Numbered from the stretch's first letter, positions 31,231 to 54,518 are shown. The stretch: 64,000 nt of DNA from Candidatus Jorgensenbacteria bacterium (GCA_011050075.1 DRGK01000017.1:39838-103837); one strand, 5' to 3'. The notes: generated by a model from the letters alone, not told the origin. Made by a program: numbers and translations.

Positions 31231-31701
31231 ATGTCTAAAAATAGAGTGCAAAAAGTTAAAACAGAAGGTGGTTTTACATTAATTGAACTTTTGGTTGTTA
31301 TCGGCATCATCGCCATCCTTGCGGGTGTGGTGATTGTTGCCCTAAACCCGGCGCGACAGTTCGCGCAGGCACGCAACAGCCAACGTTGGTCAAATGTAAA
31401 TGCGATTTTGAATGCTGTAGGTCAGAACTTAGCTGATAACCGTGGGATATTCACCTGTGCTGCAGGAGTTATTCCAACGTCTGCGACAAATATGTCATCC
31501 TCTACATATGATATAGCGACATGTATTGTACCAACATACATGCCGACTATGCCATTTGACCCAAGTGATGCGAGCGCATACTACACCGATACGGCTGATT
31601 ACAACACGGTGTACAGTATTGTACGCAGTGCGACGACCAGCCGAATTACTGTCTCTTCACCATCAGCAGAATTAGAAGAAGCAATTGCAGTAACGAGATA
31701 G
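31231..31701 (+). CDS. pilA: Type IV major pilin (PilA-like) with prepilin leader
   Basis: MSKNRVQKVKTEG|GFTLIELLVVIGIIAILAGVVIV; own promoter and strong terminator; C-terminal Cys pair (FTCAAG…IATC). Confidence 0.8.
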   Translation: MSKNRVQKVKTEGGFTLIELLVVIGIIAILAGVVIVALNPARQFAQARNSQRWSNVNAILNAVGQNLADNRGIFTCAAGVIPTSATNMSSSTYDIATCIVPTYMPTMPFDPSDASAYYTDTADYNTVYSIVRSATTSRITVSSPSAELEEAIAVTR

Positions 31702-31721: not shown

Positions 31722-31749
31722 AAAACCCCGGGATATGTCCCGGGGTTTT
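31722..31749 (+). terminator. Strong rho-independent terminator after the major pilin gene
   Basis: AAAACCCCGGGAtatgTCCCGGGGTTTT. Confidence 0.75.
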
Positions 31750-31815
31750 GACTGATTGAAAGTTTACTACATAACAAGCCATTTTTAGAGAAAATAGTGT
31801 GTTATAATTAGGATA

Positions 31816-32088
31816 ATGAAATTGCCGGAGTTTTTTAAACCAATTTTGTGGTCTTATGACTTTCCTGCCATAGATTCTGAGAAGAACAAGAAAGTTATTA
31901 TTGTGAATACGATAAATTACGGTGATTTAAAGCATTGGCATTGGTTGATACAACATTATGGGAAAGAGGCAGTTAAAGATGTTTTAGAACAGATCCCTTC
32001 AAGTGAAATAAGACCGCGGGCGCTTCGTCTCGCGACAACTATTTTCTCTATTAAAAACTTCAATTATGCACCTCGAGGTATTAACTGA
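31816..32088 (+). CDS. Small protein partner of the downstream nucleotidyltransferase (possible antitoxin-like component)
   Basis: 90 aa; overlaps the next ORF by 23 nt (coupled); AT-rich segment. Confidence 0.35.
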   Translation: MKLPEFFKPILWSYDFPAIDSEKNKKVIIVNTINYGDLKHWHWLIQHYGKEAVKDVLEQIPSSEIRPRALRLATTIFSIKNFNYAPRGIN

Positions 32089-32683
32089 GAAGGGCAAAGA
32101 AATTTTTTCCAGGCTTGATCGTTTTAATAAATTTTACCTCGCTGGTGGGACAGCATTAGCTTTGCAAATCGGACATAGGGCTTCAATTGACTTTGACTTA
32201 TTTTCCAAAAAAGAAATCCAGAAGGACTTTCTGTCTGAGATTGAGGAAGCTTTTCCTGGAGAGAACATATCAGTAGTTGTAAATAATCCCGATGAGGTAA
32301 CTGTTTTCGTAAGTGAAACGAAAGTTACTTTTTTGAAATATCCTTTCCCGTTGATATATGACCTTGTTAATTATGAAAGCGTAAACTTAGCAACCATTAA
32401 AGAAATAGCCGGAATCAAGGCCTATACAATTGGCAGAAGAGGATCTTTTAAAGATTACGTAGATTTATACTTTATTCTTTCTGAGAAGTATTTTTCTCTG
32501 AATGAGATTATTGACGTAGCTGAAAAGAAATACGGAAGTGATTTTAACTCACGACTTTTTCTTGAACAGCTTCTTTATTTGGAAGATATTACCGATACTG
32601 AAATTGTATTTTTAAAAGACAGCGTAGATAAAAAAGAACTAAGAAAATTTTTTGAGGAAGAAATAAAAAAGATTAAGATATAA
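32066..32683 (+). CDS. AbiEii/DUF1814-like nucleotidyltransferase (toxin-like NTase of a two-gene module)
   Basis: FYLAGGTALALQIGHRASIDFDLF matches the AbiEii N-terminal GGTAL…S/EDxDF core. Confidence 0.5.
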   Translation: MHLEVLTEKGKEIFSRLDRFNKFYLAGGTALALQIGHRASIDFDLFSKKEIQKDFLSEIEEAFPGENISVVVNNPDEVTVFVSETKVTFLKYPFPLIYDLVNYESVNLATIKEIAGIKAYTIGRRGSFKDYVDLYFILSEKYFSLNEIIDVAEKKYGSDFNSRLFLEQLLYLEDITDTEIVFLKDSVDKKELRKFFEEEIKKIKI

Positions 32684-32689
32684 AAATAA

Positions 32690-33610
32690 ATGACATTTGA
32701 ATCACCAAAATTTGAAGGAAAGGAACTTTCTCCTCTTAATAGGTGGGCCGAAAGAGGGGTCAAAGAAGCCTTGTCGGTCGTGAAAGAAAGATTTGAAAAT
32801 AAGGACAACAAAATTGAGAACCTTGATTTTCACAATACTCAGCACACGCAGAACGTGATACAAAGAACCGAGAAAATTCTCCTAGCAATGAGGGAGGGAA
32901 GTGCTCCAATTACCGAAAAGGACATTGCCCTTGGAAAGCTGTCATCGGCCCACCATGATGTTGTGCAGAGATGGGAGGAAAATAGAGTTAAGGACGGAAA
33001 TTTTGAGAAAGTAATGCGAAGACGCTTTATTGGTGATAACGAGAAAGCAAGCGCTCGCGCCGCGTTAGAGTTTATGGAAAAAGCAAATCAAGAAGCAGGA
33101 GAAGAGATTTTTAAAGATGAAGATATGGAAACGGTAAAAGAGGCGATTGTGGTTACTATCCCAGAATTTGATACGGAAAGGAAAACGGTTATCCAGCCGC
33201 ACCTCAATAAAGAATCGTCTTTTGTCGCAAGGGCTTTAGCTCTTGCAGATATTGGAGTCGCAGGCATGGAAGGATATAACGAGTTCGGTCAGGAAGGAGA
33301 CGCTCTTTTTAGAGAAGAGAATCTTGATATTCTCAGTGCTTTGGAAAACCCGGAAGAGCTTACATTAGAGCAGAAGGAGTATTTTAGAAACCGGATGCTT
33401 ATATGGAGCAAGTTCCAATCAGAGTTTGCCTCCGGCCGTAAGGCATTACTTGAAGAAGAACTAAGCGGTTTAACGTCTTCAGTTCAAGATGAAGTCAAAG
33501 ATTTATTTGATAAGTTTGATGAATCCATCGTGGGTGCGAAGGAAACCGCAGCTAAGCGAGAAGAGATGACCTTTGAAGAGTTAGCAAAGGACATGGGTTA
33601 TCGTCTTTAG
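32690..33610 (+). CDS. Hypothetical protein with putative HD-type metal-dependent phosphohydrolase motifs
   Basis: H…H (DFHNTQHTQN) and HD (SSAHHDVVQ) spaced as in HD domains; acidic C-terminus; AT-rich. Confidence 0.35.
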   Translation: MTFESPKFEGKELSPLNRWAERGVKEALSVVKERFENKDNKIENLDFHNTQHTQNVIQRTEKILLAMREGSAPITEKDIALGKLSSAHHDVVQRWEENRVKDGNFEKVMRRRFIGDNEKASARAALEFMEKANQEAGEEIFKDEDMETVKEAIVVTIPEFDTERKTVIQPHLNKESSFVARALALADIGVAGMEGYNEFGQEGDALFREENLDILSALENPEELTLEQKEYFRNRMLIWSKFQSEFASGRKALLEEELSGLTSSVQDEVKDLFDKFDESIVGAKETAAKREEMTFEELAKDMGYRL

Positions 33611-54006: not shown

Positions 54007-54079
54007 GCCGGTGTAGCTCAGTTGGCAGAGCAGCTGTTTTGTAAACAGCAGGTCGTGGGTTCGAATCCCTCCGCCGGCT
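54007..54079 (+). tRNA. tRNA-Thr (anticodon TGT)
   Basis: GCCGGTGTAGCTCAGTTGGCAGAGC…anticodon loop TTTGTAA…GGTTCGAATCC…CGCCGGCT. Confidence 0.8.
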
Positions 54080-54150
54080 CATATACTTCTTTCAAAATTG
54101 ACGGTACACTACAACAACTGTCCATATATACCCACGTATCTCTCTCATTT

Positions 54151-54223
54151 GCCCACGTAGCTCAGTTGGCAGAGCATTTGCATGGTAAGCAAAAGGTCGT
54201 CGGTTCGATTCCGACCGTGGGCT
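54151..54223 (+). tRNA. tRNA-Thr (anticodon GGT)
   Basis: GCCCACGTAGCTCAGTTGGCAGAGC…anticodon loop ATGGTAA…GTCGGTTCGATTCCGACCGTGGGCT. Confidence 0.8.
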
Positions 54224-54265
54224 CACTAATTTTGTATTTCCATGAAAAGTTTGTAAGATAAGGAT

Positions 54266-54436
54266 ATGGCAAAAGGGATATTCACAAAAAACTTAGTAAA
54301 GATGAAATGTGACGGATGCAGCCGCATCAACTACCGTGCGCATAAGAATAAGAAGACGGTAGAGCGCAAGCTGGAACTCAAGAAGTTCTGCAGGTGGTGT
54401 AAAAAGCATACCGTTCACAAAGAAGTCAAAAAGTAG
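54266..54436 (+). CDS. rpmG: 50S ribosomal protein L33 (zinc-ribbon type)
   Basis: MAKGIFTKNLVKMKCDGCSRINYRAHKNKKTVERKLELKKFCRWCKKHTVHKEVKK; RBS AAGGA 5 nt upstream; below the ORF-track cutoff; classic rpmG-tRNA-Trp arrangement. Confidence 0.8.
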   Translation: MAKGIFTKNLVKMKCDGCSRINYRAHKNKKTVERKLELKKFCRWCKKHTVHKEVKK

Positions 54437-54446
54437 GCGATATGGT

Positions 54447-54518
54447 GGGGATATGGTGTAACCGGTAGCACGAGAGTCTCCAAAACTCTTAGTCTAGGTT
54501 CGAGTCCTAGTATCCCCG
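54447..54518 (+). tRNA. tRNA-Trp (anticodon CCA)
   Basis: GGGGATATGGTGTAACCGGTAGCAC…anticodon loop CTCCAAA…AGGTTCGAGTCCTAGTATCCCCG. Confidence 0.8.

Follow-up and report, generated by a model that had tools for sequence, protein, structure and literature searches.

A mobile two-gene cassette pairing a DUF6922 protein with a compact DUF1814 nucleotidyltransferase in Candidatus Jorgensenbacteria

What kind of genetic element lies between positions 31816 and 33610 of a 64,000-nucleotide stretch of DNA from Candidatus Jorgensenbacteria bacterium (GCA_011050075.1 DRGK01000017.1:39838-103837; this whole stretch is hereafter called the window)? An earlier note on this DNA described the region as a low-GC islet that follows the terminator of a pilin gene and carries genes for a small protein, for a nucleotidyltransferase (NTase) resembling AbiEii, and for a 306-amino-acid (aa) protein with HD-like His/Asp motifs. 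The first two genes were proposed to form a type IV toxin-antitoxin or abortive-infection pair, and the NTase and the HD protein were offered as a possible nucleotide-signalling pair. All three open reading frames (ORFs) are present on the + strand. ORF1 (31816-32088) encodes a 90-aa DUF6922 protein that we predict to be an antitoxin or neutraliser, and ORF2 (32066-32683) encodes a 205-aa NTase of the DUF1814 (AbiEii/MenT) family that is the predicted toxin. ORF3 (32690-33610) encodes a 306-aa resident protein of the HD superfamily that resembles class I phosphodiesterases (PDEs), and this gene is a neighbour outside the module. Below we describe the evidence that ORF1 and ORF2, together with their promoter, make up a discrete cassette of 907 bp (31782-32688, + strand), and the reasons why we consider it likely that this cassette is an autonomous, mobile two-gene module of the toxin-antitoxin type, wherein the ORF2 NTase is neutralised by ORF1.

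A discrete mobile cassette carrying ORF1 and ORF2

The limits of the element are most readily seen by comparison with a second genomic copy (L145/L146), in which an ORF2 homologue with 83% identity is accompanied by a 90-aa DUF6922 protein among unrelated surface-protein genes. Homology between L145 and the window is confined to positions 31782-32688, a block of 907 bp with 86.8% nucleotide identity that begins 34 nt before the ORF1 ATG and ends 5 nt after the ORF2 stop codon, and both flanks are unrelated. Another locus (L144) carries an ORF3 homologue (87% identical) without the cassette. Here, homology to the window starts at position 32684, and the 64 nt upstream of the ORF3 homologue are not those of the ORF2 3′ end. 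A third locus (L001) has the same arrangement as the window with approximately 95-100% DNA identity, and therefore it is uninformative as a possible empty site. The region 31782-32688 is a discrete, autonomous and horizontally mobile two-gene cassette that excludes ORF3.

The two genes are also distinguished by their base composition. ORF2 has the lowest GC content among the 73 ORFs of the window (0.330, z −2.45) and that of ORF1 is 0.363, compared to a mean gene GC of 0.427. The GC content of ORF3 (0.425, z −0.06) is host-like. Thus, the low-GC islet of the earlier note holds for ORF1 and ORF2, with boundaries at 31782 and 32688, and does not extend to ORF3.

In a scan of one genome per species, ORF2 relatives were found to be encoded in at least 562 species genomes. 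The hosts are mostly Patescibacteria, and they also include Bradyrhizobium cytisi, Bryobacterales, Bacteroidetes, Gammaproteobacteria, Clostridia/Bacillota, Armatimonadota and Melainabacteria. Identities of ORF2 to the relatives from outside Patescibacteria are 45-56% (50-56% for the homologues in Bradyrhizobium, Bryobacterales, Bacteroidetes and Clostridia), which is the same range as is observed inside this group. Some genomes carry several copies or paralogues per locus, and HicA-like, PIN and other toxin-antitoxin genes are located nearby in several NTase loci. Distant relatives reside on plasmids of Hymenobacter (where a DUF6922-like ORF is located upstream), Aquifex aeolicus, Acidiphilium, Bacteroides and others. 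No ORF2 relatives were found in the IMG/VR scan, ORF2 has no match in PHROGs, and INPHARED phage records yielded one weak partial match, on a 4.1-kb unannotated contig; the ORF2 family is essentially absent from phages. The pair therefore exhibits the generic traits of a mobile toxin-antitoxin module, namely small, co-directional and overlapping genes that travel together and have a patchy distribution.

The association between the two genes was assessed in the neighbourhoods of the best 80 ORF2-homologue loci. A DUF6922 gene is located directly upstream of the NTase gene and on the same strand in 61 of these. In approximately 10 Bacillota-type loci, a DUF6922 gene is instead found immediately downstream, and the five examples tested all pass the Pfam cut-off (46-58 bits). 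The order with the NTase first is seen in L065, L066, L070, L072, L073, L074, L080 and others, sometimes with a 4-nt overlap. Given that NTase-first loci keep a DUF6922 gene downstream, the partnership survives inversion of the gene order. Among the 19 loci without an upstream DUF6922 match, two have no upstream sequence, and most of the remaining loci have a small, abutting, divergent upstream ORF with sub-threshold similarity to DUF6922. Regardless of order, DUF6922 adjoins the NTase in at least 71 of the 80 loci. When the neighbouring genes were clustered, only the NTase (78 loci) and DUF6922 (approximately 62 loci) recurred, and the next cluster was represented in 8 loci. Moreover, pairwise distances within the ORF1 and ORF2 families are correlated (r = 0.70; r = 0.67 when the codons of the overlap are excluded; Mantel 0/2000). 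The pairing of ORF1 and ORF2 is far beyond chance, and we have high confidence that the two are functional partners.

The genes share a dual-coding overlap of 23 nt (32066-32088, + strand, from the ORF coordinates), as the earlier note had reported. However, the start of ORF2 is 250 nt downstream of that of ORF1, and thus, with respect to ORF1, ORF2 is read in the +1 frame and not in the −1 frame as stated previously. Overlaps of 11-65 nt are present in approximately 51 of the 61 loci with DUF6922 upstream, and the most common length is 23 nt (16 loci). Because the overlaps are always 2 mod 3, both the dual-coded ...NYAPRG / MHxE... junction and the relation between the two frames are considered family traits. 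No Shine-Dalgarno sequence is present upstream of the internal ORF2 ATG in the window, and therefore translation of ORF2 is probably coupled to that of ORF1. The translational coupling proposed earlier is thus retained as a prediction, which the conserved overlap also favours.

An extended −10 element, TGTTATAAT, can be read from the sequence at 31800-31808 (+ strand). The distance from the end of this element to the ORF1 ATG is 7 nt, which predicts an mRNA with no leader or nearly none. In 35 of 62 loci, the same box (TGnTAnnnT) has its end 6-9 nt ahead of an in-frame start of the DUF6922 gene, compared to 29 of 838 background ORFs (3.5%) in these loci. Palindromes upstream of the DUF6922 gene are not enriched across 61 loci (mean z 0.84), and the strongest of these are terminators of upstream genes. 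In the window, an imperfect 15-nt inverted repeat (31771-31805, 80% complementary) extends across the cassette promoter from −35 to −10. This repeat is probably fortuitous, because its left arm falls beyond the cassette boundary and has no conserved counterpart in L145.

The ORF2 nucleotidyltransferase and its DUF6922 partner

ORF2 is 100% identical to a protein from the metagenome-assembled genome of an uncultured Candidatus Jorgensenbacteria organism, which places the host among the Patescibacteria, and its homologues are named ‘AbiEii/AbiGii toxin family’ by NCBI. The protein scores 52.8 bits against the Pfam AbiEii model PF08843 (cut-off 22.5), with residues 15-196 aligned to positions 7-216 of the 238 positions in the profile. 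The GGTAL...S-IDFD NTase core that had been recognised previously is present. There was no meaningful match in NCBIfam for ORF1, ORF2 or ORF3, and PHROGs likewise yielded none.

Motifs I-IV of the DUF1814 family have been defined as hG[GS]x9-15DhD with an Arg, K followed seven residues later by R, and +DxxD, and mutations have identified G49, R63, D67, D69, K173, R180 and D192 as essential residues of AbiEii (PMC3985639). In ORF2, motifs I and II read A26-G27-G28...R38-A-S40-I-D42-F-D44, a pattern that is found in 79 of the 80 species homologues. Motif III (K118...R125) and motif IV (K129-D130-Y-V-D133) are kept in 78 and 77 of these homologues, respectively. By this alignment of motifs, G27-G28 corresponds to G49/G50 of AbiEii, R38 to R63, D42/D44 to D67/D69, K118...R125 to K173...R180, and motif IV to D192. 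The equivalence of residues to those of MenT and AbiEii proteins follows published motif positions, because our searches of PDB sequences did not reach these proteins. In an alignment of 34 sequences that extends down to 27% identity, G27, G28, T29, H37, S40, D42, D44, K118, D130 and D133 do not vary, and at least 90% of the sequences have R38. The residue at position 40, which is located two residues before the first catalytic Asp, is Ser in 79 of the 79 motif-bearing homologues. Known phosphoacceptors occupy the equivalent position in AbiEii (T65), MenT1 (T39) and MenT3 (S78). As judged from its sequence, ORF2 is a compact DUF1814/AbiEii-MenT nucleotidyltransferase that carries all four family motifs.

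ORF1 is assigned to Pfam DUF6922 with 52.1 bits (cut-off 27) and has no other match in Pfam, PADLOC, NCBIfam or PHROGs. Structure prediction suggests a small globular protein composed of five helices. We found in it no helix-turn-helix (HTH) or winged HTH (wHTH), no DNA-binding motif and no fold match among solved structures, and neither its sequence nor its fold is similar to the antitoxin MenA1 or to any solved structure. An exhaustive profile search for DUF6922 yielded 760 representatives at 50% clustering, nearly all of which are stand-alone proteins of 75-130 aa. The long DUF6922 proteins were checked for NTase fusions and none was found; a wHTH fusion and an apparent RMMBL read-through occur once each among them. 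The former is P0447 (L143, 392-1039), a metagenomic protein of 215 aa with an N-terminal winged-helix domain (TrmB/MarR-like) and a C-terminal DUF6922 domain. It is a single case, and its 1-kb contig is too short to show a neighbouring gene. The fusion mimics the plan of AbiEi proteins, which join a DNA-binding domain to a neutralising domain, and it thus supports a neutraliser role for DUF6922.

Small ORFs also accompany more distant NTases on two plasmids. On the Acidiphilium multivorum plasmid pACMV1 (L141, 2181-2474), an unannotated 97-aa ORF overlaps the stop codon of a distant AbiEii-like NTase gene by 4 nt. On the Aquifex aeolicus plasmid ece1 (L142, 1254-1502), an 82-aa ORF annotated as ‘hypothetical’ shares 65 nt with the start of the NTase gene. 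Pfam DUF6922 matches neither of these, and they probably belong to additional families that partner this clade of toxins.

The neighbouring gene ORF3 and the surrounding region

The HD-like motifs that the earlier note pointed out in the 306-aa protein are well conserved. Among 50 sequences of the ORF3 family, H48, H52, D90 and D187 are invariant and H89 is present in at least 90%. The structural model of ORF3 (pLDDT, the predicted local distance difference test score, of 96.2) indicates an all-helical HD fold that matches HD-fold proteins, with predicted beta-hairpin insertions. The Pfam HD model is matched at E ≤ 1 by 22 of the 50 family members (best 3.6e-7), and the window ORF3 itself is unmatched. 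No match at E ≤ 1 was obtained between the window ORF3 and PDEase_I (PF00233), for which one of the 50 members gave a match (E 0.042). A search of all PDB sequences with the ORF3 family profile returned almost only PDE4, PDE7, PDE1 and PDE8, with marginal E values (0.016 or weaker). In these alignments, FHNxxHTxxV...FHD of ORF3 is placed on the catalytic YHNxxHAxDV...IHD of the PDEs, and FREENLDI on LQEENCDIF. The PROSITE-type signature of class I PDEs is HD-[LIVMFY]-x-H-x-[AG]-x2-[NQ]-x-[LIVMFY]. ORF3 reads H89-D90-V-V-Q93-R-W95, and thus departs from the HD-x2-H-x-[AG] portion of this signature.

The closest relatives of ORF3 by fold and profile are therefore the class I cyclic-nucleotide phosphodiesterases (PDE4, PDE7, PDE1 and others), from which it differs in being prokaryotic (Patescibacteria) and single-domain, and in carrying the inserted beta-hairpins. 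Its sequence suggests a protein that looks like or works like a class I PDE, rather than a member of that class. We find it quite likely that ORF3 is a metal-dependent HD-fold phosphodiesterase, and consider a cyclic-nucleotide substrate doubtful. The homologues of ORF3 form 118 clusters, which are essentially all from Patescibacteria and all unannotated. In one context (L086, 4455-4976; also L118), a gene with a PycTM domain, which belongs to the Pycsar effector family, is located 25 nt upstream of the ORF3 homologue P0081 (5001-5966). This neighbour is suggestive of a link to cyclic nucleotides and represents one distinct context among approximately 45; no conserved partner, the PycTM gene included, recurs among the ORF3-homologue loci. 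In the locus that lacks the cassette (L144, 1-70), the ORF3 homologue has its own TGATATAAT extended −10 box approximately 22 nt before its ATG, and the window has the 3′ end of the cassette in place of this sequence.

A type IV pilin gene with an N_methyl motif (31231-31701) is located upstream of the cassette and outside it. The pilin terminator mentioned in the earlier note is indeed recognisable as a hairpin at 31722-31749 (+ strand), which has a perfect 12-bp stem formed by 12-nt arms (AAAACCCCGGGA/TCCCGGGGTTTT) and a 4-nt loop. Its predicted RNA fold of −22.2 kcal/mol (z −4.68) was equalled by 0 of 200 shuffles. Pilin-like (type IV) genes are located near the cassette in 7 of the 80 NTase loci (e.g. 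L057, 6702-7274), as they are in the window, and this may only reflect the commonness of pilin genes in genomes of the candidate phyla radiation (CPR). Downstream of ORF3 is a gene for a fused major facilitator superfamily (MFS)/spermidine-synthase protein (NCBIfam NF037959, E 4.7e-57). The segment 34156-35754, which comprises the C-terminal half of this gene together with the beginning of the surface-protein gene that follows, is approximately 40-50% identical to L001, compared to 95-100% for its flanks, and it looks like a recombined or hypervariable patch. Seven tRNA genes are present in the window, of which three are grouped at 54007-54518 and others are found at positions 2981, 25840, 47350 and 57446. 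None of these adjoins the cassette.

Predicted action of the cassette and its alternatives

Among characterised systems, MenA1-MenT1 (Rv0078B-Rv0078A) of Mycobacterium tuberculosis is architecturally the closest, in that a compact NTase is combined with a short, helical, non-wHTH antitoxin (PMC10435456, PMC11375011). Like MenT1, ORF2 has the [ST]-x-D element (S40-x-D42), K118 of motif III and D130/D133 of motif IV. No transcriptional autoregulation has been reported for MenAT1, and there is no conserved operator-like repeat here. MenA1 is a protein of 68 aa with a two-helix V shape. ORF1, which has a DUF6922 domain and a five-helix model, shows no homology to MenA1, and ORF2 is not detectably similar to MenT1 when compared with HMMER. 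The systems AbiEi-AbiEii (Lactococcus pNP40, Streptococcus agalactiae), MenA3-MenT3 and MenA4-MenT4 have toxins of the same family as ORF2 (PF08843), which share its four motifs, R-x-[ST]-x-D-x-D among them. The cassette also resembles these systems in being bicistronic, in having the antitoxin first in most loci, and in its copies on mobile elements. In contrast, its antitoxin lacks the COG5340 wHTH and C-terminal domain, and its toxin is approximately one third shorter. Further differences from AbiE are the 23-nt ORF overlap and a leaderless-type promoter in place of an autoregulated promoter with inverted repeats. SanaTA and RlegTA, which are toxin-first DUF1814 systems known from shotgun cloning, were compared by description. 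They share their gene order with the Bacillota-type relatives, and RlegA is AbiEi-like, unlike DUF6922. No Shewanella plasmid match was obtained with ORF2 or in a tblastn search with a toxin-first, plasmid-borne relative.

By analogy to MenT1, MenT3, MenT4 and AbiEii, ORF2 would add nucleotides (pyrimidines in the cases studied) to the 3′-CCA of tRNAs, and thereby would block aminoacylation and translation. We judge toxin-antitoxin behaviour with ORF2 as the toxin to be probable, whereas for the tRNA 3′ end as its target, a proposal made by analogy, we see an even chance. ORF1 would most likely act by direct binding to the NTase, in the manner of the short antitoxin MenA1. We also advance, only tentatively, that ORF1 may induce an inactivating autophosphorylation of ORF2 at Ser40. 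Precedents for tRNA modification and for antitoxin-induced autophosphorylation exist among MenT and AbiEii proteins (PMC7450476, PMC10435456, PMC11375011, bioRxiv 10.64898/2026.01.19.700257). The ‘type IV’ label used earlier for such pairs is outdated, because the family is now described in terms of antitoxin-induced autophosphorylation, type VII (bioRxiv 10.64898/2026.01.19.700257). Leaderless transcription and out-of-frame coupling would keep the antitoxin in excess. Given that ORF2 is without its own ribosome-binding site and starts 23 nt inside ORF1, synthesis of the toxin is expected to be coupled to, and is probably below, that of the antitoxin. The biological role may be either addiction, that is, stabilisation, or phage defence of the abortive-infection type.

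Several points weigh against this assignment of roles. A comparison with PADLOC, as recommended in the earlier note, gave matches of ORF2 to AbiEii models that are weak and partial (best E 6.7e-6), and gave none for ORF1. HMMER comparisons with all PDB chains, made with ORF2 itself and with two profiles, one close (A2) and one broad (A4), gave spurious matches that included no MenT or AbiEii structure. Because no solved MenT or AbiEii protein was found by sequence, the link to characterised toxins is carried by the Pfam model and short motifs. ORF1 is unlike any known antitoxin, MenA1 included, and for this reason its neutralising role is deduced from its position. We found no mention of DUF6922 in the searchable literature, and no experimental data there for any member of this NTase/DUF6922 subfamily. 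The gene order is silent on which gene is the toxin, given that both orders occur. A leaderless ORF1 mRNA is suggested by promoter geometry, from which the transcription start was placed, and classical autoregulation is not indicated because no conserved operator-like palindrome is located upstream. Furthermore, not all DUF1814 proteins are toxic (MenT2) or phosphorylated (MenT4), and AbiE of S. agalactiae gave no defence against coliphages.

Other explanations of the locus must be considered alongside the toxin-antitoxin assignment. One extends the islet to three genes, with the NTase making a nucleotide signal or modification that the HD protein of ORF3 degrades or reverses. The gap between ORF2 and ORF3 is indeed only 6 nt with no terminator-like site between them, L001, a close relative, retains this arrangement, and ORF3 is plausible as a (cyclic) nucleotide phosphodiesterase. 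However, L001 is not independent because of its DNA identity to the window, and an ORF3 homologue is present within 6 kb of the NTase in 0 of the 80 loci. Conversely, the ORF1-ORF2 pair is present in 2 of 51 ORF3-homologue loci, both of which are near-identical relatives of the window. The other homologues, including one that is 69% identical, adjoin genes for PGI, trigger factor, VKOR, GNAT, ribosomal proteins and the like, which are unrelated housekeeping contexts. The cassette homology also ends at 32688, before ORF3, whose host-like GC content differs from that of the AT-rich pair. We therefore consider a three-gene islet extremely improbable, and the signalling pair of the earlier note is not sustained. 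Given the 6-nt gap and the lack of a terminator, ORF3 may be transcribed by read-through from the cassette promoter, and such read-through is a consequence of position and not a functional link. ORF3 is a resident, unlinked gene that is separate from the module. The earlier note held that its proposal would be contradicted if orthologous loci showed these to be conserved core genes, and a description as a conserved resident gene applies to ORF3 only and not to ORF1-ORF2.

For the two genes that remain, the NTase and its partner could instead constitute a benign enzyme that modifies RNA or nucleotides in a housekeeping or regulatory capacity, with ORF1 as a specificity or chaperone subunit. The catalytic residues of ORF2 are strictly conserved, which implies that it is an active enzyme; its toxicity is predicted, and MenT2 exemplifies the non-toxic DUF1814 proteins. 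A benign enzyme is nevertheless hard to reconcile with a patchy distribution across phyla with identities that are alike within and between them, with sharp boundaries in differing contexts, or with atypical GC content and plasmid copies. Several copies or paralogues per locus in some genomes, the HicA-like, PIN and other toxin-antitoxin genes nearby in several loci, and the single copy in the 64-kb window of a reduced genome point in the same direction. Because the distribution, boundaries, GC content and plasmid copies are typical of selfish or defence modules, this explanation is disfavoured and we rate it as unlikely. The roles might also be reversed, such that DUF6922 is the toxin and the NTase an antitoxin that modifies it covalently, on the model of the type VII MNT-HEPN (MntA-HepT) systems. 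NTase antitoxins that adenylylate their toxin exist (PMC7641770), both gene orders occur in the family, and DUF6922 has no known function. However, ORF2 fits the DUF1814/AbiEii model and not MNT, and AbiEii, MenT1, MenT3 and MenT4 are toxins. In addition, there is no HEPN-like Rx4-6H motif among the invariant residues of DUF6922, nor any obvious catalytic constellation in it, and we regard reversed roles as very unlikely. The names given to ORF2 by Pfam and PADLOC (AbiEii), and to its homologues by NCBI, would be in keeping with a canonical AbiE (AbiEi/AbiEii) abortive-infection system. This identity was rejected on its defining feature, in that the AbiEi partner (COG5340, N-terminal wHTH and C-terminal domain, approximately 200-300 aa) is absent from beside ORF2. 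ORF1 has 90 aa and DUF6922 only, with no PADLOC match and no HTH-like fold relative, conserved inverted repeats are missing from the promoter, and ORF2 is approximately 100 aa shorter than AbiEii and MenT3 and unreachable from their solved sequences. The probability of a canonical AbiE system is thus close to negligible. The broader suggestion of a toxin-antitoxin or abortive-infection pair in the earlier note is favoured by the low GC content, sharp boundaries, cross-phylum spread and plasmid copies, and it fails with respect to canonical AbiE because ORF1 is a DUF6922 protein.

The toxin-antitoxin assignment of the ORF1-ORF2 cassette can be carried further, in a form that we offer as speculation and hold to be rather doubtful. 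DUF6922 would be an antitoxin family that has so far gone unrecognised and has a novel fold, small and helical; it would bind a minimal, tRNA-modifying toxin of the MenT-like kind and induce its autophosphorylation at Ser40. The leaderless promoter-to-stop unit of 0.9 kb would cross phyla and be a common DUF1814 module in CPR/Patescibacteria, maybe one for phage defence. Separately, the ORF3 family would be a bacterial lineage of class-I-like cyclic-nucleotide PDEs.

The toxins of the DUF1814 (AbiEii/MenT) family are actively studied. They block translation by modification of tRNA ends, and antitoxin-induced autophosphorylation turns them off. Their antitoxins, as far as described, are either AbiEi-type regulators (COG5340, COG4861) or the short MenA1. 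The combination of DUF6922 and NTase is a large third pairing, with 760 DUF6922 representatives and NTase relatives in at least 562 species. This pairing, its fold-orphan partner, the conserved overlap and the leaderless-type promoter are not described in the searchable literature. On the basis of family membership and comparative genomics, the cassette appears to be an antitoxin variant of the known DUF1814 kind rather than a novel type of system. The pairing is open to experiments through cultured carriers, for example Bradyrhizobium cytisi CTAW11, and through Hymenobacter plasmids. Being compact, it lends itself to the question of whether antitoxins that are unrelated to each other generally induce autophosphorylation. 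Little is known about the defence repertoire of CPR bacteria, and for them the cassette is a candidate addiction or defence module.

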